A stretch of 64,000 bases of DNA, from NCBI GenBank assembly GCA_934246625.1, contig CAKQHZ010000001.1:232338-296337 (forward strand), given 5' to 3'. Positions 6,294 through 38,354 of the stretch are shown here, piece after piece. Made by a program: the position numbers and the translations under genes. Under the pieces are notes generated by a model. That model searched no databases and was not told where the DNA came from. It worked only from the letters and a program-made list of their open reading frames with translations. This stretch comes from an uncultured Alphaproteobacteria bacterium (GTDB lineage: Bacteria; Pseudomonadota; Alphaproteobacteria; Rs-D84; CACZYB01). The stretch's first letter is position 1, and each line of letters opens with the position of its first letter.

Positions 6294-8123
6294 TTATATT
6301 AAATTATCAGCAAGTTGTATCCAGTGTTCTTCAATACTGGATATTTCTTTTTGGATTAAACTTAATTCCTTTGAAAGTGCAGTGATTTCATTTGAGGAAA
6401 TTGGAGTTGAAAGCTCCTCGACTATTTCATCCTTTCGAGAATTTAACTCTTCTAATTTATGTTCAAGTTTTTGAAGATTTGCACGAATTTGTCGGATTTC
6501 TTTTTGATTTTGTTGTTTGACTTGAACAACGGGATTTTCCTGTTTTTTCTCAACCAAAACTTCCTTTGGCTTTGAAAGAAGGAAGTTTTTATAATCATTA
6601 AGTGAACCATCAAACATTTGACAAGTATGATTATCAACAAGATATAAATCATCAACTACCATATTTAGAAAATTAAAATCGTGGGTGATAAGCATAACTG
6701 CACCGTTATAATTATTTAATGCTTCAATCAATGCTTCGCGAGCAGAAATATCCAAATGATTTGTTGGTTCATCAAGTATTAAAAGTGATGGAGAATCGAT
6801 TGAAAGTTTTGCAAATACAACACGGCTTTTTTCACCACCAGATAATTGTTTGATTGGTGTAATACTTATATCACCTGTAATTCCAAAATTACCAAGATGC
6901 GAACGAATTTGTGTTTCATTCAAATCAGGTAAAAGTGTTGAAAAGTATTCAAGTGGAGTTTGGTCAAGTGGTAATTCTTCGGATTGGTGTTGGGTAAAAT
7001 ATCCAATTTTTAATTTTGGATTTTTAAATATACTTCCAGACATAAGTTTTAAATCACCATAAATAAGTTTTGCCAATGTTGATTTTCCATTACCATTTTT
7101 ACCAAGGATACCTATTCTGTCGCCCTGTGAAATATTCAAATTTAATTTTGTTAGGACTGGAGTATCAGTATATCCAACCGAACCATTTTCAATTTTTATA
7201 ATTGGTGATGGAATAACAGGAGCTTCCTTAAATTCGAAATGTGAAGATTTATCAAGAGCGGTTATAGTAATATCTTCCATTTTGTTTATCATTTTTAAAC
7301 GGCTTTGAGCTTGCTTTGCCTTGGTGGCCTTATACCTAAATCTATCAACAAAAGATTGAAGATGTGCTTTTTGCTCTGCTTGCCTTTTTGCAAGTTTTTC
7401 TTCGTTTTCGTGTTTTAGTAGATAATTTTTATAAAATCTGTCGTAATTGCCAGAATAAAAAAACAATTTTTTATTTTCAAAATGGATTATATTTTCACAA
7501 ATGTCATTAAGGATATTCTTATCATGACTTATAATTAACAAAGTCCCCTTATATTTTTTCAAATAATTTTCAAGCCAAATTGAGGCCTCTAAATCCAAAT
7601 GGTTTGTAGGTTCATCAAGAAGTAATATTGTTGAATATTTAAACAATGCACCAGCAAGAGCAAGTCGCATTCTCCAACCACCAGAAAAGTCAGATACTGG
7701 ACGATTAAAATCTTCGTTTTTAAAACCTAATCCATTAAGTATGGTTGAAATTTTTGCCTCGGCTTTATCACTATCTAAGACACGAAGTTCTTCATAAATT
7801 TCAGGCAATTCTTCGGGTGTTGCTGTTTCCAATTTTTTACGGGTGTTGATAAGCTCCTTATCCTTACTTAACACAAAATCAATAATTGAAAGGTTGATGT
7901 CGTAAAATTCCTGTTCCACAAATGAAATTTTTTGATTATTCGAAAATATAACCTTGCCATCAGTTGGTTCCAATTCCTTTTTAAGTATTTTAAAAAGTGT
8001 TGATTTTCCACAACCATTTAAACCAACAATACCGATTTTTTGATTATCAAAAATTTGGACTGAGGCATTTTCAAGCAAAGTCCTTGATTGCATATAAACT
8101 GTTATATTTTCTATATTTATCAT
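6294..8123 (-). CDS. ABC-F family ATPase (translation-associated; two ABC domains plus C-terminal coiled coil)
   Basis: Two Walker A motifs (GLNGCGKST, GKNGNGKST), two LSGG signatures, and an inter-domain linker. Confidence 0.85.
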   Translation of the reverse strand: MINIENITVYMQSRTLLENASVQIFDNQKIGIVGLNGCGKSTLFKILKKELEPTDGKVIFSNNQKISFVEQEFYDINLSIIDFVLSKDKELINTRKKLETATPEELPEIYEELRVLDSDKAEAKISTILNGLGFKNEDFNRPVSDFSGGWRMRLALAGALFKYSTILLLDEPTNHLDLEASIWLENYLKKYKGTLLIISHDKNILNDICENIIHFENKKLFFYSGNYDRFYKNYLLKHENEEKLAKRQAEQKAHLQSFVDRFRYKATKAKQAQSRLKMINKMEDITITALDKSSHFEFKEAPVIPSPIIKIENGSVGYTDTPVLTKLNLNISQGDRIGILGKNGNGKSTLAKLIYGDLKLMSGSIFKNPKLKIGYFTQHQSEELPLDQTPLEYFSTLLPDLNETQIRSHLGNFGITGDISITPIKQLSGGEKSRVVFAKLSIDSPSLLILDEPTNHLDISAREALIEALNNYNGAVMLITHDFNFLNMVVDDLYLVDNHTCQMFDGSLNDYKNFLLSKPKEVLVEKKQENPVVQVKQQNQKEIRQIRANLQKLEHKLEELNSRKDEIVEELSTPISSNEITALSKELSLIQKEISSIEEHWIQLADNLI

Positions 8124-8411
8124 AATAGGCTTTATGCTATCAAATAGGATTTTTTATTTCAAGCAATATTATAAAAAGTTTTTCTCTTTTACAAGAAAAA
8201 ATCAATGATATTTTATATTTGGCTACACGACAAAGACTTAATGTATTTGATATTGGTGATAAAACGCATATGCAAAATATTTCAAAGGTCAAAGTTATTT
8301 AAATGTTGCAAATGTTAGCTTTGAACCAAAGTCCAGAAATAATTGGCATATCCATCACAAGGGTGGACAAATCTTGCTTATTACTGGTAGAAATGGATAT
8401 TACCAAGAATG

Positions 8412-8585
8412 GGGAAAGCCTGCTGTAAAATTAAAAAAGGGAGTTACCTCCCTTGCGTATAATTAACAATATATATGGGGTGTGGGAAAGTAACACTTAA
8501 AAAAGGGAGTTACCTCCCTGTATTCACAGGCACCCTTTCAACAATAGGAGGGAAAGTAACACTTAAAAAAGGGAGTTACCTCCCT
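8412..8585. CRISPR. Orphan CRISPR-like mini-array: three 36-bp repeats (the first degenerate) separated by two unique 30-bp spacers
   Basis: GGGAAAGTAACACTTAAAAAAGGGAGTTACCTCCCT is exact at 8484-8519 and 8550-8585. A degenerate copy lies at 8412-8453. Spacers are 8454-8483 and 8520-8549. The repeat contains the hairpin AGGGAG-TTAC-CTCCCT. No cas genes are in the window. Confidence 0.4.
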
Positions 8586-8683
8586 ATTAGAAGAAAAATA
8601 TCCCTAATAATGTGTATTTCCACATAAATCATATTAAAAATTTTAAGAATTTCTAATACTTACTTTTCATTATATTGCCGTTT

Positions 8684-9610
8684 TTATTTTTTACAATAAT
8701 TTTCTTTTTTTGCATCTTCTGTAATTTCTTTTAATTTTATTTTCAAATCTTTATACATTTTAAAAACTATAACTTTAGTTTTTTTTAAATTTTTGTTTGG
8801 ATTTTCATTAATATCTAAAATTATACTTTTAATTTTTTCTTTAAATCGTTTATGAACTGACAAAGATTTATCATTTGAAATTTTTATCGTTAAAATTTCT
8901 TTTTTAACTTTATCTTGTTTTTTATGTTTTTCAAATTCTGTTAAAAGTATTATATTATCTTTCTTTAAAAATAATGACATTAATGCTTTTAATAAATTTA
9001 TTTTTAATTCTTTTGCGTTTTCAAAATTATTATCAAAAAAATCTAAAATTAACAGCAAATTGCTTCTAAATGTATCAAAAAATGACTTCGTAGCATCACT
9101 TTCGTTATAAAAAAATATTTTACCATGACTAATTTGATTTCTGATTTTTGTAATTTTTTCAGGAATAGATCTACACTTTATGTTTTCATAATTATAAACA
9201 AAATGTTTTTGTAGTATTTCACTTATTTTTATAAATAACATAAAAATTTTTTCTTTTTCTTCTAGATAAAATAATTTACGATATTGTGAATATTTTTTCT
9301 TTCCTAATAATGTTTTTAATATACTATCAATTTTATTTAAATTATATGAATTTATAAAATTTTGGCGTTCCAAACAATTAGATATTTTAATAGATTGTAA
9401 ACTTTTTAAAAGCATACGATTGTCTTTTATTAAATCAATTTCTTTTTTATTATAATGATTTTCAAAAATAGTTTTTACATTTTTACTTTTTGTAGATAAA
9501 ACAGATTTGAATAAATCTTCAATATTATAATCAAATTTTCCGTTATTTTTTTCACGTTCAAACAATAATTTAATATCATTAATATAAACATTAGGAAGAA
9601 ATAAAAACAA
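8684..9610 (-). CDS. Hypothetical protein with HEPN-like Rx4HG motif (Abi_2/AbiD-AbiF-like candidate)
   Basis: KIRNQISHG lies mid-protein in an otherwise low-complexity K/N-rich helical protein. Assignment rests on the motif only. Confidence 0.3.
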   Translation of the reverse strand: MFLFLPNVYINDIKLLFEREKNNGKFDYNIEDLFKSVLSTKSKNVKTIFENHYNKKEIDLIKDNRMLLKSLQSIKISNCLERQNFINSYNLNKIDSILKTLLGKKKYSQYRKLFYLEEKEKIFMLFIKISEILQKHFVYNYENIKCRSIPEKITKIRNQISHGKIFFYNESDATKSFFDTFRSNLLLILDFFDNNFENAKELKINLLKALMSLFLKKDNIILLTEFEKHKKQDKVKKEILTIKISNDKSLSVHKRFKEKIKSIILDINENPNKNLKKTKVIVFKMYKDLKIKLKEITEDAKKENYCKK

Positions 9611-9753
9611 ATTTTTTAAAGATTCTTCAACATTTAGTTCCTTCTCAATTCCAGAAACTGTAATAGTTTCCTCTTTCGGTAAATTATTATGTTCAAAATA
9701 ATGTCTTAATAAAGAAATTGATGCAATTTTATTTTTGAAATCTTTAAAATCTT

Positions 9754-10086
9754 TTATATAAATAAGTTTCTTTTTAAATATAAAATAAAAGTATTTTTTA
9801 ATTTCTGACTCTGTTTTGATAAAAATTCTTCTCTAAATACATCTGTCCCAAAAATATCAAAAGGATAACTTGGCAAGTTATTTGAGTTATTTTTTTCTTT
9901 TTTATACCATTTTACAACTTGTTCAAAAGAATTTCTTGCTTCGTTATCAAGCATTTCATACTTATATTCATAATCTTTTGTTGCATCAAAAAAACTATGC
10001 AAAATTGCATTATCTAAAATATAAATATAAGATAATATTTTACTTCTTACTGATTTATTTGAAAAAATCTCCATAATAATTTCCAT
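9754..10086 (-). CDS. Hypothetical protein (possibly the 5' part of a frameshifted gene continuing into 8684-9610)
   Basis: ORF only. It is in a different frame from the downstream ORF and separated by 143 bp with no intervening start. Confidence 0.25.
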   Translation of the reverse strand: MEIIMEIFSNKSVRSKILSYIYILDNAILHSFFDATKDYEYKYEMLDNEARNSFEQVVKWYKKEKNNSNNLPSYPFDIFGTDVFREEFLSKQSQKLKNTFILYLKRNLFI

Positions 10087-10985
10087 TGATAAATAATGCT
10101 TTTATTTTAATCTGTATATATTATCCTTTCAAGAAAAAATAAACACGACCAAATGATGATGTTTAATAAAATATAAATTATTACTGGACCACTTAATCCT
10201 ATTGCGAATCACTCACCTAAAAATGATTATGAGGGATTTTGAAAGATTTTTACTTAAAAGACATTGGAATAAAAAGCACATACCATTCATTGCATTTGCA
10301 GAAAAATGAGTATCTGAAGAATGGCATTTTCACTTGCTTTTCAATGGTGGTGAATTTACTCATCAGGAATTAAAAATAGCAACCTACAGGATAATTTTGA
10401 AACAAAAACTACCCGCATACAGTCTGTAAATAGATGAAATAAAAGATGGTGTTGCAAAGGTTGAATGTTATACGATAAAGGAAATCAAAGTCACAGATTA
10501 TAATCATTTTGACAGTGACAGGATTATACTTTCTCACAATTTATTTAATCTGGAGGTAAAATAATTCAATCCCACCTACCCAATATCAACGAAAAACAAA
10601 ATTATAGTAAATTATAAACCAGAACTGTTTAATCGCAATTCTGGCTTGTTTATGTCATTCTAGATAATATTTAGTATTCTTCTGCTAACATAACTGTCAT
10701 TACTCGTATTGTCTTTGTTATATCAGTTGGGTCGTTCGAATAATAACGAAAATCCCTATCATAATAATCAATCTTCCACATTATCTTTTCACCATAATAA
10801 ATAAAACTTCCATAATCGTGTTCATTATATGGGTCGTTCTTACTATTAAAATTATTAAAAGCTTTTCACTCCCTGCAAAATCTCATTTATTGCTTTTTGT
10901 CCTTTGCTGAAAACACCTCTGGTCAACATCACTTTCCCACCTAAAAGGCTTTTACGGAAGTTATCGTTTAGTGTTTGAATATCCA

Positions 10986-11236
10986 TTATCTACCCTCCTG
11001 AATCAAGAATTTATTGAAGCGACGAAGTGCTTGTTTTACGCTTGTGTGAGAACGATTTCCATAAGCAAATTTTTCACCCGCTTTGTAAATTGGTAAGATT
11101 GAAGTAATGTTTTGTGTGAGAGTTTCAAGGCTGATATTTTACTTCTTACAAAGGCAAGTTATACGACCTTGATAGTCCTTTGCAGTGTTAAGTTTGTAGT
11201 TGTTAGCGATAAGCCAATTTTTAAATTTTTTAAGCA
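10986..11236 (-). pseudogene. Fragment resembling a tyrosine-recombinase N-terminal SAM-like domain, interrupted by an in-frame stop
   Basis: Reads MLKKFKNWLIANNYKLNTAKDYQGRITCLCKK*NISLETLTQNITSILPIYKAGEKFAYGNRSHTSVKQALRRFNKFLIQEGR*. There is no catalytic domain downstream. Confidence 0.3.
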
Positions 11237-11528
11237 TTTTAAAACCCTTTCATTTTTTGTTTTACATAATAAATATGTCGTGTTGTTTTGAGAAAATACG
11301 CAAAAAATGTGAGAAAGATGGCTGTTTTTAGGTATTTTTTGAGTAGGTTTGAATTTTATTGAGAAAAATCAAACCTCGTGTCCACATGGACACAAGATTG
11401 AAATCAATAATTTGTTACCACAAAAACGCTAACAAATGATGCTAAACTGAAAATGTGTTTTATCCGAGAATAAAAAAAGACACCTCATATCGCTAATAAT
11501 ACGAGGAGTCATAATTATGGATTACTTT

Positions 11529-14405: not shown

Positions 14406-14993
14406 ATGATTTATGGATATACCAGAGTTTCAACTGAACTACAAAACACCGAAAATCAAAAACACGAAATTCAAACCTTTGTAAAGTCGCAGAAAATCAA
14501 GATTGACAAGTGGGTGGATGAAATAATTTCTTCCCGAAAATCATTAAAAGAAAGGCAACTGGGTAAACTTTTAAAACATCTTAAAAAAGGGGATATTTTG
14601 ATTGCTTCGGAACTTTCAAGACTTGGCAGAAATTTGCTTGAAGTTATGGGAATTTTGCAAAGCTGTTTGGAAAAAGATTGCCAAATATGGACCTTAAAAG
14701 AAAACTATAAACTTGGTGCAGATATACAGTCAAAAGTCCTTGCATTTGCGTTTTCGTTGGCTGCTGAAATTGAGCGACAACTTATTTCTCAACGGACAAG
14801 GGAGTCATTAAAAAGGATAAAAGATGAAGGTAAACATCTTGGCCGGCCATTTGGATTTAGTTATAAAAAACTTGATGCAAAGAAAGGTAAAATCCAAGAA
14901 TTACTTTCAAAAGATATTTCCAAAGCCGAAATTGCAAGGCTTCTAGATTGTTCTTGGATAACACTTCACAGGTATATACGAAAGTCATTGTAA
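14406..14993 (+). CDS. Serine recombinase (resolvase/invertase family)
   Basis: N-terminal MIYGYTRVSTELQN with the catalytic Ser, SELSRLGRN, and a C-terminal HTH. Confidence 0.8.
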   Translation: MIYGYTRVSTELQNTENQKHEIQTFVKSQKIKIDKWVDEIISSRKSLKERQLGKLLKHLKKGDILIASELSRLGRNLLEVMGILQSCLEKDCQIWTLKENYKLGADIQSKVLAFAFSLAAEIERQLISQRTRESLKRIKDEGKHLGRPFGFSYKKLDAKKGKIQELLSKDISKAEIARLLDCSWITLHRYIRKSL

Positions 14994-15309: not shown

Positions 15310-17901
15310 CTAATATTTCGATAATACTGTAATTATCTCCTGTTTTATTTTCTGTGGAAAATCGTAATTTATCCAATCTGGATTGTTATTAAACCAAGAC
15401 AAGCATTGTTCCTGAGTTAAGTTATCACTTGTCATGTATTCAAATATATAGGATACTGCCGTACGAGAAAAACCTAAATATAACAATGATAACTGTGTTT
15501 TTTGACTAACACCGAATTCCAAGAAAACTGAAAAATCTTGAATTTCTTGAACTAAATCATTTCTATTAATACTCGTCAAATAATATTTCAATACATCTGA
15601 ATAGCATTTAAGATATTTTGGGGCTGTATATCTTGCAAATTTTTCTATTAATTCCATTGTTTCCCTGATCAATGTATTTGTATTTAGTGAATCAGAATAA
15701 TTCCTTGATTTTATATAGTTAATTCTGTTTGTTATAATTCTCTTTAATGGATACCCTCTCATCCAATTCACTACTATAATTGAGCAACTATATAACGAAC
15801 GACTTGAGTAATAAATTCGAGTTAAATGATTATTGATTCTTTGAAACGCTTTGTTATAGATACCAACAGCATTTTCACTAGCAGGATCGCATAGTAATAG
15901 CTCCTCAATATTCTTTTTTTTATTTTTATTGCGTTCTATAAAATAATTATACAGTCTAATTATATGCATAGAATTTATGCCTGGATTATTTTCTATAATA
16001 TCCAAAGGGAAGGGTAAATTTTGATAAATATTTGCAATCTCGCTTTCTATCTCATCAATGTTAGGAAAGAAATTACTCCATTTATATTGTTTTATTGTCT
16101 TATATCTTCCATATTGTGCCACTAAATATGACACAAACTGATCAAATAAATGATTAGGCTGTGCGTTTATATCTTGACATTTTATATAGTTTAAAAAACT
16201 TGTTGTCTTAAACTCTTCATTATCGATAAATTTCCTAATGTAGTATTTCTGTCTTTTCTTTGGAGCTTGTCCATCCGTCCAGATATTTTTATCGTTGGGA
16301 TCAATACAGATTATATTACCTTGAAATTCAGTTCCCCATCGTCCTGCTCGTCCCGCTAAATTCCAAAAATCAGCATTTGACATTAACTGTTGTTTCCCTT
16401 TTTTAGGGCCTCGCATAAATATACTTCTACACGACAAATTAACACCTTCAACCAATGTAGAGGTACAAACTAAATGTGTAATAATATTTTCATTGAATAA
16501 TCGTTCTATTTCTGCTTTTATTAAAATAGGCATATTTCCATAATGAAAAGCTACACCACGTTTTAGAACTTTACATAGAACATATTCTTCATGGATAGTT
16601 TTCTTACATAAATCAATTAATGAATTTAGTGCTTCATCGTTTTTATTGTTATCTTCACCCAACAAATCACATATTAACTGAGCAATCTTTTCAGCATCTG
16701 CAGCACCATTTACATATATAATATTACCTTTAGCAATTATATTTTGATTATGGGTTAATGCATCGACCATATAAGCAATTCTTTTTTGATCAGAATTGGG
16801 GGATGATTTAAGAGAAATATTATTCAAACAATATTCTTCATTACCACTTATCAGCTTCAAAACCCATTTCTTAGATGAATGAGGCTGTTGTTCTACCCAC
16901 AGAATGTTCTGATTAACCGTCAGTTCTTCACCTTTGATACAATGTGTTTGTTTTTTCTCATCTATATCTTCAAGTAATCGTTCTGGATTAGCAGTAAATG
17001 GGCTAACAAAAACTAATTTAAGATTACTATTTTCAAATATTCCCCATTCTATAATTTGTTGCAATAAAAGTCCACGATTATCATCACCTATCTTATAGGC
17101 TTCGTCAATAATCATTGCAAATATATTTAATTCAAAATTCAACGAAGAAAGTAATAGATAAAAACGTTCTTGCGTAAATACGAAAATATTTGATTTATTC
17201 CAATCTAAAATATCATTTATTGGCATAGATGTCACATTGACTTTTTCTTCCAGAGCATTATCGTTTATTAGTTTTTTAAAATCTTCTTCTAATTCATATA
17301 TTAAAGCTCGCGTAGGAACAATATATACTATATTTACTTTGTTATTTTCTTTTATTTGATCGATAATCCATTGTTTTACTATAAATGTTTTACCTGCAGC
17401 TGTTGGAGCTGTAACACTCAAATATTTGTAACATTCCAAACTTCTCCAAAAATTATTTTGAAATTTATTCGCAAATATTTTCTTTCCGTTGTTTGTGTCT
17501 ATAAGATTTTCTTTTCTACATCTTGTCCAAAACATTTTAGATGAAAAATTTAGACGGTTTTCTATATGTCCTTCTATAAGGTTTCTTTTTTCTGCTAAAT
17601 TAATGGCCGGAATGTTAGATAAAGAATTAAGAATAATGGTCGCCATATCTCTATGTTCAGGTGATACAGCACAAGATATACATGTCTGGGTAATTCTTAA
17701 AACCTTATCAAAATTAGAAACATCTTTTGCTAAAATACTTGCACATAGTAGCAAATATCCCCAATCTATATCTGCTTGCGTATCTTTTTCCTTAATAAAT
17801 ATGCCATCGAACTGTTCTTCAACAGATAAAAGGAGAACCTTTAAATACATATTACTAAAGTATTGGTTATTATTTATCCATTCCAATAAAGTTTCTTGCA
17901 T
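15310..17901 (-). CDS. Ski2-like SF2 helicase, candidate Hachiman HamB
   Basis: Helicase motifs are TAPTAAGKT (I), PTRAL (Ia), IIDEAYK (II), SPFTA (III), FHYGNMP, TSTLVEGVNL (V) and QLMSNADFWNLAGRAGR (VI), after a roughly 160-aa N-terminal domain. The start is 3 bp from the upstream DUF1837-like gene. Confidence 0.5.
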   Translation of the reverse strand: MQETLLEWINNNQYFSNMYLKVLLLSVEEQFDGIFIKEKDTQADIDWGYLLLCASILAKDVSNFDKVLRITQTCISCAVSPEHRDMATIILNSLSNIPAINLAEKRNLIEGHIENRLNFSSKMFWTRCRKENLIDTNNGKKIFANKFQNNFWRSLECYKYLSVTAPTAAGKTFIVKQWIIDQIKENNKVNIVYIVPTRALIYELEEDFKKLINDNALEEKVNVTSMPINDILDWNKSNIFVFTQERFYLLLSSLNFELNIFAMIIDEAYKIGDDNRGLLLQQIIEWGIFENSNLKLVFVSPFTANPERLLEDIDEKKQTHCIKGEELTVNQNILWVEQQPHSSKKWVLKLISGNEEYCLNNISLKSSPNSDQKRIAYMVDALTHNQNIIAKGNIIYVNGAADAEKIAQLICDLLGEDNNKNDEALNSLIDLCKKTIHEEYVLCKVLKRGVAFHYGNMPILIKAEIERLFNENIITHLVCTSTLVEGVNLSCRSIFMRGPKKGKQQLMSNADFWNLAGRAGRWGTEFQGNIICIDPNDKNIWTDGQAPKKRQKYYIRKFIDNEEFKTTSFLNYIKCQDINAQPNHLFDQFVSYLVAQYGRYKTIKQYKWSNFFPNIDEIESEIANIYQNLPFPLDIIENNPGINSMHIIRLYNYFIERNKNKKKNIEELLLCDPASENAVGIYNKAFQRINNHLTRIYYSSRSLYSCSIIVVNWMRGYPLKRIITNRINYIKSRNYSDSLNTNTLIRETMELIEKFARYTAPKYLKCYSDVLKYYLTSINRNDLVQEIQDFSVFLEFGVSQKTQLSLLYLGFSRTAVSYIFEYMTSDNLTQEQCLSWFNNNPDWINYDFPQKIKQEIITVLSKY

Positions 17902-17904
17902 GTT

Positions 17905-18873
17905 TTATCCTTTATCTGGAAAAATTCCCAAACATTTATGAAATTCTGTTCTTAATTCATTTACAGATTTAAAAGGAATACAGAAGAAATGTATAACAAA
18001 AGAGTCTAATCCTTTCATTTTTAGTTTATTTTGAATAACTATATTCAATTTCGGTATTTCTTTTCGAATTTTCTTTTCTACATCTGAAATAGTTTCTTGA
18101 TTGGGAGATTGAGGATAATAATTATCTTGTTCAAAGCCAACAAAAGCTATGGCTCTTATTTCGAGTTTATTAAATTTAGGACTATCTCTATCTAAATACT
18201 CCTTAAGTACATCTTCCATTTTTTTATCATTAAGATCTATAAACTGCTTTAATAGAATAAAATCCCTATTATCTGCGGACAAGATACCACCATTCGCATT
18301 AAGTAAGGTATTTAAGCTATTTAAGCAATCTTCAACTGCGGTAGGAAAATCTTTATAAACTTTTGATTCTCCCCAATGTAAAGCTAAATTATTATCCTCT
18401 GTTAATCCAAGATATACTCCATCTGCACCATGGAAGTACATATTATGATTTGTTTTTAAATTCATTTTACATATCACTTGGGGAATTTTTAAAAATTTTT
18501 CTGCTAATACAAATAAAATTAGTTCACCTAATTCACCTGACTTAACACTATCGACAAATGTTTCCTGTGCTTCTTGCCGTAATTTCATCATATTTCTGGT
18601 TGTTGAATTTTGGTTATCCCTATTTTTTGCTTCAACAATACGACTTCTTGGAATTACATAATCAATTATATCACAAACCACACAATCCACAAAATCTTTT
18701 GTTCGATCCCGTCCGTTGCCATCTAATTCAATACAATGCCAATAAGATATTGTTTCTGTTTCATCTATCTTTTTTTCTTTTTCTACAGTGTGTAAGAAAG
18801 CTTCATAGCTATTGAAATCACCCCTAGCTAATCTATTTAATATACTCAATAAAAAATCTTCGTTCTCAGACAT
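17905..18873 (-). CDS. PD-(D/E)xK-like protein, candidate Hachiman HamA (DUF1837-like)
   Basis: The E ... D ... ExK pattern (GELGE, HGADGV, HWGESKVY) sits directly upstream of, and translationally coupled to, the helicase. Confidence 0.45.
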   Translation of the reverse strand: MSENEDFLLSILNRLARGDFNSYEAFLHTVEKEKKIDETETISYWHCIELDGNGRDRTKDFVDCVVCDIIDYVIPRSRIVEAKNRDNQNSTTRNMMKLRQEAQETFVDSVKSGELGELILFVLAEKFLKIPQVICKMNLKTNHNMYFHGADGVYLGLTEDNNLALHWGESKVYKDFPTAVEDCLNSLNTLLNANGGILSADNRDFILLKQFIDLNDKKMEDVLKEYLDRDSPKFNKLEIRAIAFVGFEQDNYYPQSPNQETISDVEKKIRKEIPKLNIVIQNKLKMKGLDSFVIHFFCIPFKSVNELRTEFHKCLGIFPDKG

Positions 18874-21349: not shown

Positions 21350-22378
21350 ATGGAAAATAAAGGAAATATTATAATATACAAAGATGAAAATGGCACAGTT
21401 AAGGCTAATGCTTTATTTGCCAATGAAACTATATGGCTTACACAAAAAGGAATGAGTGAACTTTTTGATATAGACCCTTCTGGTATAAGCAAACATATAC
21501 AAAATATATTTAATGACGGAGAATTGGCAGAAAACACGACTCTTGCAAAATTTGCAACTGTCGTAAATCGAGGTTTTCGTGGTCCAATAGAAGAGGAACT
21601 TGATTACTATAATCTTGATATGATTATTGCTGTCGGATATAGAGTAAATTCCAAAAAAGCAACTGCTTTTCGTATTTGGGCGACAAATGTTTTAAAAGAA
21701 TTTATTACAAAAGGCTTTATCCTTGATGATGAACGCTTAAAAAATGGAAATATGTTCGGTAAAGATTATTTTAGAGAATTATTAGAACGTATTCGTGATA
21801 TTAGGATTAGTGAAAAAAGACTATATCAACAATTAAAAGATATTTACGCCCTTTCCGCTGATTATACAAAAGATAATAAAGATGCCTTACGATTTTTTGC
21901 AACAGTCCAAAATAAAGTGCATTTTGCAATTACTGGAAAAACTGCTCCTGAAATTATATATGAAAGAGCAGACTCTGAAAAATCTAATATGGGACTTACA
22001 TCTTGGAAAAATTCACCAAACGGAAAAATCTCCAAATCAGATATTGGTATTGCTAAAAATTATCTTAATGATTCCGAATTACAAGATTTAAGGGGAATAA
22101 TAAATATGTTCCTTGATTATGCAGAAATGCAAACAAGAAATAACAAACTAATTTATATGAAAGATTGGGAAAAACGTCTTGACGACTTTATAAAATTTAA
22201 TGAAAAGCAAGTTTTATCAAATGCCGGAAAGATATCTCGTATGACAGCACTAAGAAAAGCCTTTTCTGAATATGATAAATATAAAGAATTATTAAGAATA
22301 GAAGAAAAGGAACAAGCTGAAAAAGAAATAGAAACAGATATAAAAGAATTAAATGAAATTTTAGTGAAGAATAATTAG
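21350..22378 (+). CDS. RhuM-family protein (virulence/DNA-binding family common on islands)
   Basis: N-terminal IIIYKDENGTVKANALFANETIWLTQKGMSELF pattern, and the family-typical length. Confidence 0.55.
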   Translation: MENKGNIIIYKDENGTVKANALFANETIWLTQKGMSELFDIDPSGISKHIQNIFNDGELAENTTLAKFATVVNRGFRGPIEEELDYYNLDMIIAVGYRVNSKKATAFRIWATNVLKEFITKGFILDDERLKNGNMFGKDYFRELLERIRDIRISEKRLYQQLKDIYALSADYTKDNKDALRFFATVQNKVHFAITGKTAPEIIYERADSEKSNMGLTSWKNSPNGKISKSDIGIAKNYLNDSELQDLRGIINMFLDYAEMQTRNNKLIYMKDWEKRLDDFIKFNEKQVLSNAGKISRMTALRKAFSEYDKYKELLRIEEKEQAEKEIETDIKELNEILVKNN

Positions 22379-22435
22379 CATATCAGTTGTTCGAGATTTT
22401 CGAATAACTGATAATCAATAAAACAGGAATATCTT

Positions 22436-23596
22436 ATGTCAAAACAATTTAACTTCACCAAAAAAGATATTGATGCATTGCCAGTGCCAAACAAAGGTTT
22501 TGCCACCTACTCTGACACAACGGAAAAAGGGTTGAAACTCTACATTACTCCAACAAGGACAAAGACTTTCTTTATTCGTAAATTTATAAATGGGCGGGAT
22601 GAACGGCTTATCATAGGTCCGTATCCGGATTTGACTATTTCACAGGCGAGGGAGAAAGCAAGAATTTTAAAGGGGACTATTGCAAACGGCATCAACCCAG
22701 CGGAGGAGAAAAGAAAACTTCGCCGTGATATGACCGTTGCGGAATTTTTTGATTACTACATTACAAATTACTCCACAAAGAAAAAGCGCCCTAATTCCAT
22801 CAGGTCGGAAAAAACTTTGTATAAAAATCATATTGCAGATTTTCTCGGGTATAAAAAGATGACCTTGGTGCAAAAGGCGGACATTGAACGGATTTTAAAG
22901 CCCTTGGTAAATCAAGGCAACTTTGCCACAGCAAACAGGATACTTGCCCTGTTTTCTGGTATGTATAACAGAGCGATTGAATGGGGTTATCCCGATGAAA
23001 ATCCGACAAAGGGGATAAAAAAGCAACGCGAAAAATCACGGGAGAGATTTTTGCAACCTGATGAATTGCCACGATTTTTTGAGATGTTAAACTCTGTTAA
23101 AAATGAGAATTTTAAAAACTATATATTGCTTTCACTTTTTACGGGGCAACGAAAAAATAATGTGCTTTCAATGAAATGGGAGCAGATAGATTTGTCGCTT
23201 GGGATTTGGTTTATACCACACACGAAAAATGGAGAAAGTTTGAATTGTGCGTTGAGTGATGAGGCAATAAAACTTCTCTCTGATATAAAACAAAATACAA
23301 CCTCCGAGTGGGTTTTGCCAAGTGAAACTTCCTCCAGCGGGCATTATGAAGAGCCGAAACGGGCTTGGAGAACCTTGCTTAAAAATGCAGGGATTGAAAA
23401 TTTACATCTTCATGATTTAAGGCGAACCCTTGGAAGCTATCAGGCGATAGGCGGTTCAAGTTTACAAATAATTGGTCAATCTTTGGGACATAAATCCTTG
23501 CAATCTACACAAATATACGCCCGCCTTATCAAAGCTCCCGTCCGCCAAAGCACAAACATGGCCGTCGCGAAAATTTTGGAGTATGCGAAGAGGTAG
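22436..23596 (+). CDS. int: Tyrosine integrase, P4-like (N-terminal arm-binding DUF4102-type domain)
   Basis: KGLKLYITPTRTKTFFIRKF arm domain. Catalytic motifs are HDLRRT and LGHKSLQSTQIYARL (the Tyr nucleophile). Confidence 0.9.
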   Translation: MSKQFNFTKKDIDALPVPNKGFATYSDTTEKGLKLYITPTRTKTFFIRKFINGRDERLIIGPYPDLTISQAREKARILKGTIANGINPAEEKRKLRRDMTVAEFFDYYITNYSTKKKRPNSIRSEKTLYKNHIADFLGYKKMTLVQKADIERILKPLVNQGNFATANRILALFSGMYNRAIEWGYPDENPTKGIKKQREKSRERFLQPDELPRFFEMLNSVKNENFKNYILLSLFTGQRKNNVLSMKWEQIDLSLGIWFIPHTKNGESLNCALSDEAIKLLSDIKQNTTSEWVLPSETSSSGHYEEPKRAWRTLLKNAGIENLHLHDLRRTLGSYQAIGGSSLQIIGQSLGHKSLQSTQIYARLIKAPVRQSTNMAVAKILEYAKR

Positions 23597-25148: not shown

Positions 25149-26615
25149 ATGTTTTATGCAAATTGGATATTTTTCTTAGGTGATAAAGAAAATAAATATA
25201 AAATTTTTGTATATGGACTTTCTTTACCAACAAATAAAAAAGAAAAATATGTTTCTAAATTACAAAAACTTTGTAAAATTGATAATTATAATTTATATAT
25301 GTTATGTGCAATTACAGAGATAAATAATATTATACAAGATAATACTATAAATTTATCAATTATTTCTGATGAATTACCTCAAATAAAATATTTATGTTCA
25401 AAAAAATTTATTCAACCTGCTGACCCAGGAGAGGCATTGTCATATATTAAAAGTCCTATAAATAGTTTAACAAATATTACTAGCTACTATACTAAAGAAA
25501 TTTTAACAAAAGAGTTTTTAAACGAAGATTTAATTATTCTCTTGAAGCAATTAAATGATATATTAAATCAAAGGTTTTATGGAGAATATTCAAAAAGATT
25601 AGGTTGCTTTGAAATAGGAGAAATACAAACTTGGGCAGAAGATATTATTCCATTTTATTTTAAATTTGATAAAAATAATAATGACTATATTTTTCATAAA
25701 AGAAATGATTTTAAAGAAGATCTTTATATTGTTTTAAAATGTTATTTATCAGATAATGAGAAAATATATGAAAATATAAAATTTGTTTCTAAAACAGATA
25801 ATGATATTCAATTCAATGGAATTAAAGAGCATTGGATATATGAAGCTTCTATATATAATAATACAGGAAATTTAATACATGAGGAAAAATATTTCTATAC
25901 AAAACGTATTTGGTTAAATATATGTCCTAAACCTTCAAATAAAATAAAAATAGAAGATGTATATTCTGAAAAAGATGCTAATTTAAGGACTGTAGATTCT
26001 GCTATATTTACTACTCAATCTATAGTAAATAATCCGTATATTGATATTAAATATGATGAAATAGAAAAATTACATAAAAATATAGAACAGAGAATAAACA
26101 ATTATAAAATCTCTGAAAAAGAAGGAGCATTCTTTTCAGAAAAGGATAAATTAAATTCTATAATAAATTATCTTAATTCTATTAACTTAAAAAATGATAA
26201 AATTATCATTATTGATCCTTATATTGATATAGATTCTTTATCATTAGGGTTGAGATTACATTCAAGCGAATTATTGGTGATTTCTTCAAAAAATCCGCCA
26301 CATATGCCAAAATCCAGTATCAAGCAAAATATACAAAATATACTTAAAGTGAAAAAAGAAAATAATATAAACAGTATTAAAGTTCATTTTATTGAAAAAC
26401 GATTTCATGATAGATTTATTATATTTTTTAATAATCATGAAAAAGATATTTATAGTATATCAAATAGTGTTAACTCCTTAAAAACAAATCCTAATATATT
26501 AATTACAAAATTAAATGGAAAAGTTAGATTTGATGTAGAAAAATATCTTGATACATTAATAGAATTATGTAAACCAGAAAATACAGTTGAAGAAATTTTA
26601 AAAAATGATAAATAA
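25149..26615 (+). CDS. Hypothetical protein (unknown cargo gene A)
   Basis: AT-rich ORF. The C-terminal region KIIIIDPYIDIDSLSLGLRLHSS...FHDRFIIF suggests a possible nucleotide-binding or nuclease-like fold. No confident family was found. Confidence 0.3.
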   Translation: MFYANWIFFLGDKENKYKIFVYGLSLPTNKKEKYVSKLQKLCKIDNYNLYMLCAITEINNIIQDNTINLSIISDELPQIKYLCSKKFIQPADPGEALSYIKSPINSLTNITSYYTKEILTKEFLNEDLIILLKQLNDILNQRFYGEYSKRLGCFEIGEIQTWAEDIIPFYFKFDKNNNDYIFHKRNDFKEDLYIVLKCYLSDNEKIYENIKFVSKTDNDIQFNGIKEHWIYEASIYNNTGNLIHEEKYFYTKRIWLNICPKPSNKIKIEDVYSEKDANLRTVDSAIFTTQSIVNNPYIDIKYDEIEKLHKNIEQRINNYKISEKEGAFFSEKDKLNSIINYLNSINLKNDKIIIIDPYIDIDSLSLGLRLHSSELLVISSKNPPHMPKSSIKQNIQNILKVKKENNINSIKVHFIEKRFHDRFIIFFNNHEKDIYSISNSVNSLKTNPNILITKLNGKVRFDVEKYLDTLIELCKPENTVEEILKNDK

Positions 26616-27858
26616 AAAGTTTTGTTTTAAGAAATTAACTGATACTAAACCAGAAGTTGTATTGACTAATTTAATAAAAAAATTTAACTCTAGGAGAAAT
26701 ATTAAACTTATAAAATATGTTGAAGCATTATCATTATTATCTCATATAAGAAATGAAAAAATTTTTAAGTATCAATTAATAAAAATATTGAAAACAAAAT
26801 TACTTAATAATATTTATAATAAATTAGAGGATTTACCTAGTACTTTTGATGAGATTAATATAGATATATCAGAAATTGATAGTTTAATTAACTCAGAATT
26901 ATCATATAAATTAATAGACAATATTGCAAAAACTGAAATTAATATAAATAAAAATTATAAATATTATGGAATCCGTAACTTATTTCAATATTTATTGGAA
27001 ATAGATTTACAAAATTTTGAAAAATTTATATCAGAAACAAATAGAGATGATTTTAAAATAATATTTGTAAGTATTCTTTTATCTATATTTCCAATATTAG
27101 AAGATATATATAAAAATTGGGATAAAGCTACCTTAGGTATTTTACAGGCATATTATGCAAATATATACTACAATAATAATCCTCACTATTGGCAATTTAA
27201 TTTAAATAAAAATAAAGAGATTAATACAATATTAAAAACAAACTTACCTAATAAAAGTAAATTTATAATATATTTGAAGTATATTATTCAGAAATATCAC
27301 GGTAAAAAATTCACTAATTTATTAAAAGATAGTGAAATTGACAATTTAGTAAATAACCTATTATCTATAGATTATAACTTCACTTGTGAAGAACTATTTG
27401 CTCAATCTCCAGTTTTTTATTCTTCAATATATTTGATAATTATAGATAATGTTTCTGATAAAAAGAAACAATACGAATTTGCTTCTTTCTTATATGAAAA
27501 ACTCATAAATTGTATTGAAAAAAATAATTCAGAATATTATGTTCAATACATAGAATATGCAAATATATTGGGTGATTTAACTATAATTATGAATAATTTT
27601 GATAAACTAGATAAATTATTTAATCAAAATTATAAACAATTATTATTTCCATATAGTTTTTGTAAAAGACAAGATTGGAATGAAAAGATATTATTATTAC
27701 TTTATATACTAATATCAATAAAAATAGTATATGATGGAAATGATATTTCCAACTACTTACATAAATTTAAAGAAGTAAAGGGCAAGCACTTGACAATGCT
27801 AGAAAAAATAAATCCTGATATCTATAATCAGATAATCAAACAATTAGACAATAATTAA
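26605..27858 (+). CDS. Hypothetical protein (unknown cargo gene B, overlapping A by 11 bp)
   Basis: ORF only. It is helical and repeat-like, and translationally coupled to gene A. Confidence 0.3.
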   Translation: MINKKFCFKKLTDTKPEVVLTNLIKKFNSRRNIKLIKYVEALSLLSHIRNEKIFKYQLIKILKTKLLNNIYNKLEDLPSTFDEINIDISEIDSLINSELSYKLIDNIAKTEININKNYKYYGIRNLFQYLLEIDLQNFEKFISETNRDDFKIIFVSILLSIFPILEDIYKNWDKATLGILQAYYANIYYNNNPHYWQFNLNKNKEINTILKTNLPNKSKFIIYLKYIIQKYHGKKFTNLLKDSEIDNLVNNLLSIDYNFTCEELFAQSPVFYSSIYLIIIDNVSDKKKQYEFASFLYEKLINCIEKNNSEYYVQYIEYANILGDLTIIMNNFDKLDKLFNQNYKQLLFPYSFCKRQDWNEKILLLLYILISIKIVYDGNDISNYLHKFKEVKGKHLTMLEKINPDIYNQIIKQLDNN

Positions 27859-27940: not shown

Positions 27941-29749
27941 TTATGATTCTTTAATCTTATTCAACCAAAATAAATACCATTTATCCTGAATATGTTCTTT
28001 AATTTTATTCTCAATACTAAGAGTATTCAATTTGTTATTTTCTAAACAAAAATTATATAGAATTAAAAATTTAGATAAAGGATAACCCTTTTTATGTTTA
28101 TTTTTAGGAAATAAATATTCTTTTAAATAATGTATATTTTTACATGATCTAATTTCATCCATATTATAAATTACAGAAGATGCATCATTATAGTCACGTT
28201 GTAAAATGAAACTACGTAAATCATTGTATTCATCTTTTAAGTCTGGTAATAAACGAAAAAGAATAGATGAAACTTGTCTAGTTAAAAATGAATTTTTGAT
28301 CCAAAGATTTCGATATTTATTTATATGTTCATAGATAGATTTTGGTGTTTCATATTTAGCAGCAAACCATAAGTAACTATAAAAATTAAATTCTTTATCC
28401 TTAATAGTTAATGATTTTAAATATTTAGATATATAATTTATATTTTCAATATCCACTCTTGAATATCCAATATTCCAATCTATAATTAAAGCAACCAATA
28501 AAAATAACGTTATATCATCATATCTTGTAATATTTATCAATGATTGAAAAATTTTATATGTTTTTTTAGTATATCCTAATTTATATAAATATTGACATAC
28601 ATTAGTTCTCAGATCTGAATATTCTTCAAAAATTCTTGGTAAATATTTTAAGATTTTAGTAAAATTGTTATTTCCAGCAATAGTCAAAAATCTTTTTAAA
28701 ACCTTATCAAAATTTTTATATTGTTTATTCTTGTTCCAATGTCTTCTAAAATATTTCATAAACTCTTTTTCTTTTGGGGGATTTTTGTCAAATATATTTA
28801 ATTGAATATTTTCGTCAAATAAAAAATGTCTTTTTGCCTCAGAAGCATCAAGAATCTTTGTTTTTGACATATTAAGAGACAATCCTCTACTTTTTAAAAC
28901 ATCAGATATATTGCTTAAAATTGACTTAGCCTCCCTTATATCATCAATACCAATAACAATATCATCCATCCATCTTACAAAATTTTCATTTATTTGATAT
29001 TTTAATAAGTAATCAATTTCAAAAAGAAAAGAATGTGCTAATAGTCTAATTGCTTCTAAATTAATTGTAGGCATTCCAATTGATTGATTGGGTAAATAAT
29101 CTGGTTTCCATGATAAATCTTCAATTATATTAAAAATTAAATCTAATAAAACTTCGTCACATTTGATATACCCAGAAACTACACTTCTTAACTCATTTAA
29201 CCGTATACTATCAAAATAATTTGATAAATCTGTTATAATAATATATTTTTTTGTTTTTGTAAATTGAAGAATTTCATTTTGATATATTTTCCATTGTTCA
29301 AACCAATCATTATAATCCGTATTTATTTCATGAGGAAGTTTAATAGAAGAACTTTTATCTCTAGAATAATAAGCATGATTTGAAGGTGCCTGTTTTTCTA
29401 AATCATTACAAAAAGGTTCTATAAGAGCTTGTAAAATAAGAGTGTCACTAGGAGATAAAATAATCATATGGCGACAAATGCCAAATTTTTTCTCTAATGT
29501 ATATATAATTGGTATTTGCGATTTATATTGACCAGAAATAATTTGTTCATTAATTTTACTTGTATTATAATCTATTCTTCTATGAAAATCATAAAAATCA
29601 TGTAAATCAAGAATACTCATACTCCTTACTTGACTCTTAACTTTATGTTTCCATAATGTTTTTAAAGTATCCTTTTTAAATGGATTTTCTAACTGTTTTT
29701 GCCTTTTTTTAAATCTTAACGTTATAGGTTTAGACATTTTAAAACTCAT
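27941..29749 (-). CDS. Reverse transcriptase, stand-alone Abi/defence-type (AbiK/Abi-P2/UG-like), with an RT domain plus a roughly 300-aa helical C-terminal extension
   Basis: RT motifs are FGICRHMIILSPSDTLILQALIEP (1/2), IITDLSNYFDSI (A), GMPTINLEAIRLLAHSF (B'), FVRWMDDIVIG (C, with MDD replacing YxDD) and SLNMSKTKIL (D). There is no maturase, endonuclease or intron-like domain. Confidence 0.8.
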   Translation of the reverse strand: MSFKMSKPITLRFKKRQKQLENPFKKDTLKTLWKHKVKSQVRSMSILDLHDFYDFHRRIDYNTSKINEQIISGQYKSQIPIIYTLEKKFGICRHMIILSPSDTLILQALIEPFCNDLEKQAPSNHAYYSRDKSSSIKLPHEINTDYNDWFEQWKIYQNEILQFTKTKKYIIITDLSNYFDSIRLNELRSVVSGYIKCDEVLLDLIFNIIEDLSWKPDYLPNQSIGMPTINLEAIRLLAHSFLFEIDYLLKYQINENFVRWMDDIVIGIDDIREAKSILSNISDVLKSRGLSLNMSKTKILDASEAKRHFLFDENIQLNIFDKNPPKEKEFMKYFRRHWNKNKQYKNFDKVLKRFLTIAGNNNFTKILKYLPRIFEEYSDLRTNVCQYLYKLGYTKKTYKIFQSLINITRYDDITLFLLVALIIDWNIGYSRVDIENINYISKYLKSLTIKDKEFNFYSYLWFAAKYETPKSIYEHINKYRNLWIKNSFLTRQVSSILFRLLPDLKDEYNDLRSFILQRDYNDASSVIYNMDEIRSCKNIHYLKEYLFPKNKHKKGYPLSKFLILYNFCLENNKLNTLSIENKIKEHIQDKWYLFWLNKIKES

Positions 29750-29819
29750 TAAATATTATTTTGCAAAAATATATTATCTTTATAAGTCTTTTTCAATAAA
29801 AAATATGAATTATTATCTT

Positions 29820-32800
29820 TTATCCAAACAATCTATCCAGTTCTTCTTCTAAAATACCTTCCTTAACAAGAGGAAGTGTATCAACTTGTTTCAAATTATG
29901 TTTTTGAATGAAATTTTCATTATCGAAACCAAGGATATATGATATAGCAATACGATAAATTATTTCTGTCGGTGCTAATCCATAAACTTGCTTTTCAAAA
30001 ATATGCTTTAATCTATCTTTTGAATCAGGATAAATCTTTATCAATTTAGGATTATTATATAATCGTTTTACAATTTCAGTGATATATAATCCTGATTTCA
30101 TATATAAATCAATAAATGTTTTATCTGGATCTGTAAAGCAATCTGGACATTCTTTTTCTAAATTATCTACCATTTCTTTTACTACTTTTTTAGGCGTAAA
30201 GATTTGGTTTGTTTTTTGTGGTGGAATATAATCAAAAATATCCTCAGTGTTATTTTCATCAAAATAATTGGAAAGTTTAGTTTTCAAATTTAAGAATTCC
30301 TTAATGGAATCATTGAAAACAATAGGATCAAATAGATGTCCATCAAAATGCTCCATTTTTCCTGTTTTTTCATCTTTATAATCTCCACCATCACGTAAAA
30401 ACTTAAATTCAGCAAGAGAAATACTTGTAACTTCTTTAAATACTTCATCTGGTATAATTGTATCAAAGTTTTCTAATGTTGTGTTTTCATTACCATAAGC
30501 CATTAAAAATGAAGGTATTGTTCTTGAAAAACCTCTTAAATAGTCTCGAACTGAATCTTCTATGGCTGTTTTTTCTTTTTGCCTTTTATCTGTTTCTACT
30601 CTTTCAATAATTGTATTTCCTGTATTTTGAATAAGTTCAGGAAGTTTATTCTTCAATTCTGAAATAAATGTTGTTTTGTTTTCAGCAACTTTCAAATCAT
30701 ATAGTTCATTAATTTTATCTTTTTCAAAATCAGATGCTGTTTTTAATTCTTTTTTTCGTTCTAATTCTGTCTGATTTTGTAAGATTTTATAATTACCATA
30801 TTCTTTATCAAAAACCTGATTTGTTGTATTTAATATTGTTTGAGTAATTTTCTTTAAAGAGCTGGTTGTTACAGCATTTTTGTAGTTTGTTTTTACTGTA
30901 TCAACAAAAGTTTCTTCAACTTTAGCTTTAAATGTATCTTTTAATTCTTTTAATTTCTCATCATCTTGTTCAGGTTGGTTATTTTGCAATTCATTTACAG
31001 TTTCAACTAAATCTTTATTAATACTTTCATAAATCTTATCTCCAAATATTTCATTCGCTTGACCAATAATAAAGTTTTGTGAAAGTTCTACTTCTCCATC
31101 TTCATTTAAAGATAAATCATCTTTTGTATTTTGATTAATTGGTAAAGGTTCTTTTGTCTTTTCAAATTTTTTTATAATATCAACAACTTCTTGTGGTGCA
31201 TTGAATATGTTTCCAATATTCTGGAATAAGAAATTACTCATAAAACCACGTTGAACGACTTCTTGTGCATGGATTTTACGAGGAATAGATAATACCTGTT
31301 CAGCCTTAAGAAGTATCATTTCACCATCCTCATCTTCACCATAAACAGGGAAAAAGTTTAAAAGTTCTCTAACATTTTGTTTCCTTGTATCACTATCACC
31401 TTGTCCACTTGTTGTATTTATACTTAAATCGTTAGCAAATTTTTCAACAATTTCCAAAGTTCTTGCTGGATCAAAATCAAATACATAAGCATTTTCTTTT
31501 CTAAAGAATTGTCTATCTTTATGGAATATACAAGGATTTTGCGACCTGAAAGCTGTTTGCATATATAATGCTGGACTTTTAACATTACCAAGCATTAAAA
31601 CTGCTGTCCATTCAGGAATTGTAATTCCAGTAGTTAATTGTCCTACAGATAGAGTAATTGTCTTTTCATAATTCTTTATGCCATTAACAACTTTATTAAA
31701 TGCATTTTCACGTTCTTCGTCTTCATTAAGTTTACCATCCCCAGCGGCAACAATAATTTCATAATTTTTAAATATAGGGTGATTTTTTAATTTTTTTGCC
31801 AAAGCTTTAACACTACCAACTCTATCTAAAAACCAGAATGTATGATTAAGTTCATCTCTTAATTCTTGAGTTGAAAATGGAAATTTAGTTTTTATAGTTA
31901 ATGCATCCAAAAATTTATCAACGGCTTCATCATACTTAAAACTTCCATTTTCATTTGTTGAAAAGAATTCATTCAAATCAAAAGCATATTCTCTAATATC
32001 ATCATCAGATAAATTGCATCCCTGTTTTACCTTGTCTTCAATAATATCTGACATCTTATATGTATAAAGATTTAATTGAGGTAAGTTTTGATAAGGATTT
32101 TCTTCTTCGTTTGATGTATCCCAATTTTTTTTTGCATTTTGTTCATCAGCATAAGTCCAATTAAATATAGCTTTCTCTTCAAATTTATTATTTGCTAAAG
32201 CTTTAAATGGCGTTCCAGATAAATGAAGTGTAAATTTTCTTTTTATTTGATCAAAGGCAATGTCAGTATGATATGTATCAACACCTTCATGTGCTTCATC
32301 AATTACTAATAAATCCCAGTCTAAATCTTTAATCTCTTTAAGTTTATCATATTTTCCACCAAAGTAGATTGACCCTTTTAAATCTTGTAATGATACAAAT
32401 TCAATACATCCTTTATGATTTCCATCGTTAAGTTTATTTAAGTATTCTTCTCTTGATAGAACATATTCTTTACTTTTCAAAGTACTAACTTGACTAACAA
32501 AATAATATCCTGAATTGGTACCTAAAAACCTTTCATAATCAGCATACCAAGAATTAGCAATAGCTGGTCTATTCGTTACAATTAAAACTTTTTTTGCATT
32601 TATCTGTTTGCATAAGTCATAAGTTGATAATGTTTTACCAAATCTAGGTTTTGCATTCCATAAAAATTCTGGTTCATCATCTTTATGACTTTCAAAATAT
32701 TCTTTTGTTTGAGAAACAGCATTAAATTGCTCATTTCTAAGTTTGTATTCTATTACAGGTTTTGTTTCTAAAATTCCTCTGTTTTCTTTAAATTCATAAA

Positions 32801-33119: not shown

Positions 33120-33120
33120 A

Positions 33121-33501: not shown

Positions 33502-33516
33502 TTTTACTCATCTCCT

Positions 33517-38278: not shown

Positions 38279-38354
<76 letters not shown>

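Follow-up and report, generated by a model that had tools for sequence, protein, structure and literature searches.

A probable minimal type VI CRISPR locus of the Cas13an kind, with a frameshifted effector gene, in an uncultured gut alphaproteobacterium

Positions 8418-10086 (minus strand) of the 64,000-nucleotide stretch of alphaproteobacterial DNA analysed here, called the window throughout, probably constitute a minimal type VI CRISPR locus of the Cas13an kind (subtype VI-E, Cas13e-like), the effector gene of which is broken in this genome; the probability of this reading is put at about 0.82. The locus would comprise one small gene for an effector with two HEPN domains, a short promoter-bearing leader, and a mini-array of the order R-S2-R-S1-R, the last repeat being degenerate. 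The evidence obtained here concerns the association of gene and array, the homology and fold of the protein, its catalytic motifs, the structure of the repeat, and variation in the units at the leader end of the array. The original prediction had described an orphan array with no cas genes within 64 kb, a description that no longer holds given the frameshifted Cas13an homologue adjoining the array on the minus strand. The features of the locus and its immediate flank are as follows.

8263-8442, plus strand: cupin (mandelonitrile-lyase-like) pseudogene fragment (NCBIfam NF049940, E 9.5e-11).
8418-8453, minus strand: degenerate, leader-distal terminal repeat, AGGGAGGTAACTCCCTTTTTTAA followed by TTTTACAGCAGGC; the first ~23 nt (hairpin and U-run) are repeat and the remainder is antisense cupin remnant.
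8454-8483, minus strand: spacer S1, the older one, ACACCCCATATATATTGTTAATTATACGCA in crRNA sense; also present in L006 and, with three small differences, in L007.
8484-8519, minus strand: repeat 2, AGGGAGGTAACTCCCTTTTTTAAGTGTTACTTTCCC, 36 nt, an exact repeat match.
8520-8549, minus strand: spacer S2, leader-proximal, TCCTATTGTTGAAAGGGTGCCTGTGAATAC; private to the window's strain and absent from L007 and L023-L027.
8550-8585, minus strand: repeat 1, leader-proximal, same sequence as repeat 2.
8586-8683, minus strand: leader, AT-rich intergenic sequence of 20% GC, conserved in related loci.
8696-8691 (-35, TTGTAA) and 8674-8669 (-10, TATAAT), minus strand: predicted sigma-70-like promoter with a 16-nt spacer, matching at 10 of 12 positions.
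8684-10086, minus strand: frameshifted cas13an-like effector gene, ~98 nt upstream of the array.
8684-9610, minus strand: remaining frame of that gene, called as a 308-aa ORF, with its stop codon at 8684-8686.
9125-9142, minus strand: HEPN2 catalytic motif R-N-Q-I-S-H, which aligns to the iRNxiAH motif of Cas13an.
9689-9706, minus strand: HEPN1 catalytic motif R-H-Y-F-E-H, which aligns to the RnyLEH motif of Cas13an.
9757-9763 (~9759), minus strand: 4-nt deletion, TATA being lost in ...TTTATA[TATA]TAAAAG..., from alignment with the intact locus L007.
9754-10086, minus strand: N-terminal ORF of 110 aa; the start equivalent to that of the intact alleles is at 10074.

The sequence at 8418-8585 is a real two-spacer CRISPR array that is read on the minus strand. 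Its 36-nt repeat (GGGAAAGTAACACTTAAAAAAGGGAGTTACCTCCCT on the plus strand) is found exactly at 8484-8519 and 8550-8585, a match of any kind was obtained in 0 of 100 shuffles, and the intervening spacers, each of 30 nt, are unrelated to one another and occur only once in the window; the geometry is therefore real and not a product of chance. These exact repeats and unique spacers, together with variation among strains, bear out the original prediction of a CRISPR array, including its two exact 36-bp repeats and its two unrelated 30-bp spacers (8454-8483 and 8520-8549). S2 has a GC content of 43%, compared with 29% for the genome. The predicted degenerate terminal copy is likewise present, at 8418-8453, with the correction that the array starts at 8418 and not 6 nt earlier, at 8412. 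This third copy shares with the full repeats a core formed by the 3' 21-23 nt on the plus strand (72% overall), in which the hairpin and the A/T run are kept, and outside this core 5 of 15 positions match, which is chance level. An origin of repeats 2 and 3 from the cupin gene, proposed on account of a GGGAAAG that is found upstream of copy 1 but is 6 nt out of register, was rejected on this same count. The truncated terminal copy is found in every strain of the window's species (L005, L006, L007, and L023-L027). Cupin homology ends at ...KLKKG, the start of the repeat core, and the junction of cupin and terminal repeat is identical in L007 and L023-L027; this cut-off point marks the edge of the inserted locus. 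The short plus-strand ORF ending KKGVTSLAYN, which the first repeat had been said to overlap, does exist, but as a remnant of the cupin gene rather than as a gene in its own right.

A dispersed repeat of the MITE/REP type, for which a check had been proposed with the original prediction, or a chance duplication would fit the small copy number of the unit and nothing more. No extra copy of the repeat, sense or antisense, was found in the window at up to three mismatches, the 20-nt repeat core gave four unrelated single chance matches in 596 Gb of representative genomes, and repeat-pattern scans of metagenome and viral sets returned single-copy phage terminators only. The unit is thus not dispersed in the window or in representative genomes, the array reading stands, and a dispersed or chance repeat is scarcely credible. 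The 36/30 geometry had also been taken as evidence of a type II array, and an orphan array derived from a lost or distant cas9 locus would account for it, this geometry being typical of type II as well; in addition, type II adaptation genes are present in trans in some Cas13an-bearing genomes (PMC12165695). However, published Cas13an systems, with effectors of 421-577 aa and no other cas genes, have the same 36-nt repeats and 30-nt spacers (Yoon et al., Science 2024, PMC12165695), so that the geometry is no evidence for type II. Furthermore, neither cas9, cas1, nor cas2 is among the called genes of the 64-kb window, which also contains no tracrRNA-like anti-repeat, the array always accompanies a Cas13an-like gene and never cas9 in the loci retrieved, and its repeats are like those of Cas13an. 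An orphan type II-like array is highly improbable on these grounds, and a type VI array of the Cas13an kind is preferred.

The association of the array with the effector gene is consistent across loci. In every locus retrieved, the array lies on the same strand as the gene, 75-230 nt downstream of its stop codon, and the two are found side by side at six distinct loci (the window, L007, L008, L009-12, L020, and L022). The window and five further loci contain near-identical direct repeats separated by unique spacers of constant length, with a period of ~66 nt (60/65 nt in the decayed array of L009). L007 combines one spacer with an intact gene, L008 has at least two spacers on a contig that ends within a repeat, and the array is decayed in L009-L012. 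L020 encodes a protein (P0012) of 26% identity by local BLASTP and carries at least eight repeats with seven different spacers; L022 encodes one (P0013) of 23% identity, again by local BLASTP, and carries three repeats with GC-rich spacers. The first and last spacers of L020 (3996-4025 and 4458-4487) are identical and its contig ends within a repeat, most likely reflecting an assembly loop through the repeats, with seven distinct spacers in the true array of this contig. A foreign origin is suggested for the L022 spacers at 7205-7234 and 7271-7300 by their GC content of ~57-67%, the locus around them being AT-rich; they match nothing in the phage and plasmid collections.

Strains of the window's species differ in the number of spacers, which is zero in L023-L027, one in L007, and two in the window and L005, and in the state of the effector gene, which is intact in L023-L027 and L007 and broken in the window and L005. 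These strains do not differ in the leader, the truncated terminal repeat, or the cupin junction, and extra units are found only in the leader-proximal position. This series of zero, one, and two spacers is CRISPR-like turnover, in which gain and loss are indistinguishable, such that it may reflect deletion rather than acquisition. In L023-L027 (e.g., L023, 2994-3029), an intact 464-aa gene is accompanied by a 23-nt hairpin/U-run remnant fused to the cupin fragment and by no spacer, from which it follows that the gene persists without any guide. The tiny arrays in the window's species, its one pseudogene allele, and the lack of cas1 and cas2 in the 64 kb count against the type VI reading. The comparison of spacers with phage and plasmid databases that had been recommended yielded no match: 15 spacers had no credible protospacer among GenBank phages, PLSDB plasmids, or the window itself, and three had none in IMG/VR when searched as exact 22-mers. 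This is weak negative evidence, since the databases probably lack the phages of this uncultured host.

The effector belongs to a rare protein family. Only three relatives were found among 5.8 billion proteins (P0001, P0002, and P0003), all of them intact, 464-469 aa in length, and spanning both ORFs of the window; P0001 (464 aa) is 93% identical to the broken gene, P0002 83%, and P0003 63%. An exhaustive HMM search of 1.84 billion (1.84e9) representatives produced nine additional matches, eight of which are full-length (465-599 aa), and the family amounts to ~10 clusters in this set. No further loci were found in GTDB representative genomes or by protein-based searches of JGI metagenomes and IMG/VR. 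R125, H130, and H318 never vary in the family, and at least 90% of its 12 members have R313. As expected of type VI (Cas13) effectors, two HEPN domains, each with an Rx4H motif, are found in one protein. Alignment by hhalign of an 11-member family alignment with the 13 published Cas13an sequences, which were taken from Table S3 of PMC12165695 and are available to residue 400 only, gave probabilities of 98.7-99.6% (E 2e-16 to 1.5e-22) over 360-371 collinear columns, with both Rx4H motifs in register; three family members alone sufficed for probabilities of 96-98%. Identity to Cas13an is only ~13%, the best pairwise value being 20% over 291 aa, and HMMER with the family profile retrieved 0 of the 13 published Cas13an sequences in a search of 1.84e9 proteins. 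Scans of the broken ORFs against Pfam, NCBIfam, and PADLOC returned nothing meaningful, a sequence search of the PDB gave no match, and Foldseek against the PDB gave nothing significant. The low identity and these silent searches weigh against the Cas13an assignment. The AF2 model built from 12 sequences (a three-sequence model, with a pLDDT of 52, was set aside) predicts a Cas13-like fold with an intramolecular HEPN pair, and a conserved C-terminal block, KSSF..ALKAL..RKDY, forms β strands in this model. The compact size of the intact alleles (464-469 aa), the lack of insertions the size of a REC lobe, and the lack of other cas genes at the loci, as read from the Pfam labels of neighboring genes, are likewise those of Cas13an.

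An AbiF-like type III toxin-antitoxin module would also place a HEPN protein beside hairpin RNAs, the protein acting as toxin, the RNAs as antitoxin or regulatory elements, and the 30-nt segments as linkers. AbiF/AbiD (Abi_2) proteins differ from the family described here in having a single HEPN domain in ~300 aa and in forming homodimers, and their RNA motifs have no variable spacers between them. The abiF ncRNA motif RF03085 gave no match at the locus, nor did Pfam Abi_2. A toxin-antitoxin module is considered unlikely relative to a Cas13an-like effector.

In the window, the two ORFs of the Cas13an-like gene lie in different frames, and the two R-x4-H motifs are found in the frame translations. 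The frame is broken after approximately codon 105, before the first HEPN motif, and HEPN1 has no usable start codon upstream of it in the window's strain. The truncated 308-aa product (P0045) is encoded on 12 contigs from three sources (NCBI, Logan, and ENA), which makes the lesion a genuine allele rather than an artefact of assembly. An alternative genetic code was considered as the cause of the broken ORF and rejected in view of the 4-nt deletion and the long neighboring genes that are intact in table 11. Because the deletion shifts the frame of all that follows from shortly ahead of HEPN1, the effector is almost certainly inactive in this genome. The array of the window is therefore almost certainly a recently orphaned relic, the gene having been retained intact in other strains of the same species. 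Upstream of the effector, at 10100-11500 (minus strand), there is no ORF of more than 60 aa, and fragments of a DUF3768-like gene (~10590-10760) and of other genes are present. The counterparts of these genes in L007 and L023, located upstream of an effector gene that is itself unbroken, are intact, which indicates that the whole cassette is decaying in the window's strain.

The AT-rich sequence at 8586-8680, originally proposed to be leader-like, does behave as a leader and has been conserved among related loci. The predicted -35 element falls within the last codons of the effector gene, and the -10 element TATAAT lies just past the stop codon; the -10 element and blocks at the 3' end of the leader are kept in L007, L008, and L009. 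A small palindrome, ATGTGGAAATACACAT (~8610-8625, minus strand), is conserved even between loci with only 63% protein identity. We infer that 8586-8683 carries the array's own promoter.

The crRNA sense is assigned to the minus strand of the window because both the stable tetraloops of the repeat's hairpin and its likeness to Cas13an repeats are confined to the gene strand. On this strand, the repeat reads AGGGAG-GUAA-CUCCCU followed by a U-run. The 5' hairpin is held in 36 of 36 pair cells across six repeat types, with compensatory G-C to A-U swaps at two of its pairs between subclades, and stable tetraloops (GNRA, UUCG, and CUUG) occur on the gene strand only. Likeness to the repeats of Cas13an2 and Cas13an9 is likewise seen in the gene-strand sense only (z up to 4.8), with a summed score against Cas13an repeats of +8.5 versus -165 for the reverse complement. 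The minus strand being functional, the hairpin lies at the 5' end of the repeat; the AGGGAG-TTAC-CTCCCT hairpin of the original prediction is thus present, but its placement at the 3' end is to be reversed. The minimum free energy fold in the window's subclade is an end-to-end hairpin with a central U-rich loop, of the kind published for Cas13an (-12.4 kcal/mol), with which the 5' tetraloop hairpin (-9.7 kcal/mol) competes, and pair 8:29 of the end-to-end fold varies between U-A, C-G, and A-U. L020 and L022 are unable to form the end-to-end fold, a departure from the published repeats that counts against the Cas13an reading, and the 5' tetraloop hairpin is the sole fold conserved in all six repeat types. 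Rfam gave only a sub-threshold hit on the minus strand, to CRISPR-DR34 (16.9 bits, the threshold being 35; E 1.7).

Every repeat of the clade (window 8418-8585, minus strand; L020 3960-4497; L022 7169-7336) resembles an intrinsic terminator, with a tetraloop hairpin followed by U5-6. A terminator scan of the minus strand identified three sites, corresponding to all three repeat copies, where 0.4 would be expected; each has a GC-rich stem of 6-7 bp before its U5-6, and all lie directly downstream of the gene. These properties would be accounted for if the repeats were tandem intrinsic terminators of the upstream minus-strand gene, arisen by duplication of its 3'-UTR and devoid of guide function. 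This reading is nevertheless very unlikely: the 20 nt past the U-run are also conserved, like the 3' halves of Cas13an repeats, a fixed 66-nt period with unique 30-nt inserts recurs at six divergent loci, and L022 has a separate strong terminator of its own after the array, stronger than its repeats. For the guide array that is favored here, the terminator-like repeats are an awkward feature, as they pose a difficulty for transcription past the first repeat to the spacers.

By analogy with Cas13an (PMC12165695), minus-strand transcription of the array would start in the leader. The effector would bind the repeat as a 3' handle, giving a crRNA composed of spacer and then repeat, as in Cas13an crRNAs, where the spacer is 5' of the repeat (PMC12165695), and the HEPN site may trim the pre-crRNA at a point within the spacer. 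Once the 30-nt spacer had paired with a phage transcript, the HEPN RNase would be switched on, in cis and with collateral activity, and immunity would result. A more doubtful extension, which can be offered only tentatively, is that the clade constitutes a type VI subtype of its own, not yet described, with a repeat remodelled as a self-contained tetraloop hairpin and U-tract that doubles as handle or antitoxin of the effector and as leaky terminator. If so, termination, and not nuclease processing alone, would set the 3' ends of crRNAs and the polarity of the array, and both the very short arrays and the hairpin-only remnant beside intact genes in spacerless strains would be explained.

The host genome is low in GC (29%) and comes from an uncultured alphaproteobacterium, samples of which include Hadza and Nepali gut metagenomes. 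The RecA of this host shares 92-95% identity with RecA from MAGs labelled "Alphaproteobacteria bacterium". A ~30-kb island, at the margin of which the locus is situated, carries genes for defence and of mobile elements, namely Hachiman, resolvases, an integrase, and a reverse transcriptase accompanied by a helicase; it ends at a tRNA-Thr gene (38279-38354). Within the island, a Hachiman-like pair at 15310-18873 (minus strand), made up of a HamA-domain protein (17905-18873) and a DEAD/ResIII helicase (15310-17901), adjoins a resolvase (14406-14993). A RhuM-family gene and a tyrosine integrase lie mid-island at 21350-23596 (plus strand), suggesting at least two nested mobile elements. Two overlapping genes (488 and 417 aa) at 25149-27858 (plus strand) have no Pfam match and lie where the window is at its most AT-rich (20.6% GC). 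The cassette at 27941-35438 (minus strand) encodes an RVT_1 reverse transcriptase (27941-29749), a 1111-aa MUG113/ResIII protein (29820-33155), a 126-aa protein, an Eco57I-like methyltransferase or endonuclease (33517-34506), and a 311-aa protein; beyond it lie a resolvase (35555-36163) and then the tRNA-Thr gene. This cassette has the appearance of a second defence system carried by an integrated element.

Cas13b and Cas13bt (type VI-B) are among the closest characterized systems, but their effectors measure 775-1150 aa, carry large insertions of helical and lid type, and have no detectable sequence similarity to the window family; csx27/csx28 accessory genes are absent at the window locus. 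With Cas13an, the locus has in common the 36-nt repeat and 30-nt spacer. Subtype VI-E/Cas13e, the smallest Cas13 in the 2025 classification, appears to be the same kind as Cas13an. The repeats of the window's clade differ from the published Cas13an repeats, which form one end-to-end hairpin, in that they open with a self-contained tetraloop hairpin and a U-run; within the clade, the end-to-end fold survives in the window's subclade only. The hosts also differ, those of the clade being uncultured, low-GC gut alphaproteobacteria. Signature peptides of the clade are absent from the 13 published Cas13an sequences and the accompanying tables, while an earlier description in the Cell 2025 Cas13e paper is possible. 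A 2025 preprint contains two Cas13an-like proteins which, at 32-50% identity to Cas13an2, represent a different branch. The window family is thus apparently an undescribed branch of the Cas13an-like kind, rare and very divergent, with a remodelled repeat.

Cas13an/Cas13e effectors are the smallest known RNA-guided nucleases; their interest lies in the link that they form between AbiF toxin-antitoxin modules and type VI CRISPR systems, and in their use as RNA-editing tools small enough for delivery. The clade supplies orthologues to this group, with intact 464-aa alleles, a natural series of zero, one, and two spacers, and a different repeat design, and at ~13% identity it is so divergent that HMM and Foldseek searches miss it. 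For annotation, the lesson is that "orphan" mini-arrays can adjoin effectors that are unrecognised or even broken. With its terminator-like repeat, the clade poses a concrete question about the transcription of such arrays and, set beside Cas13an, is a natural experiment in which the guide-RNA handle has been rebuilt and the effector kept.
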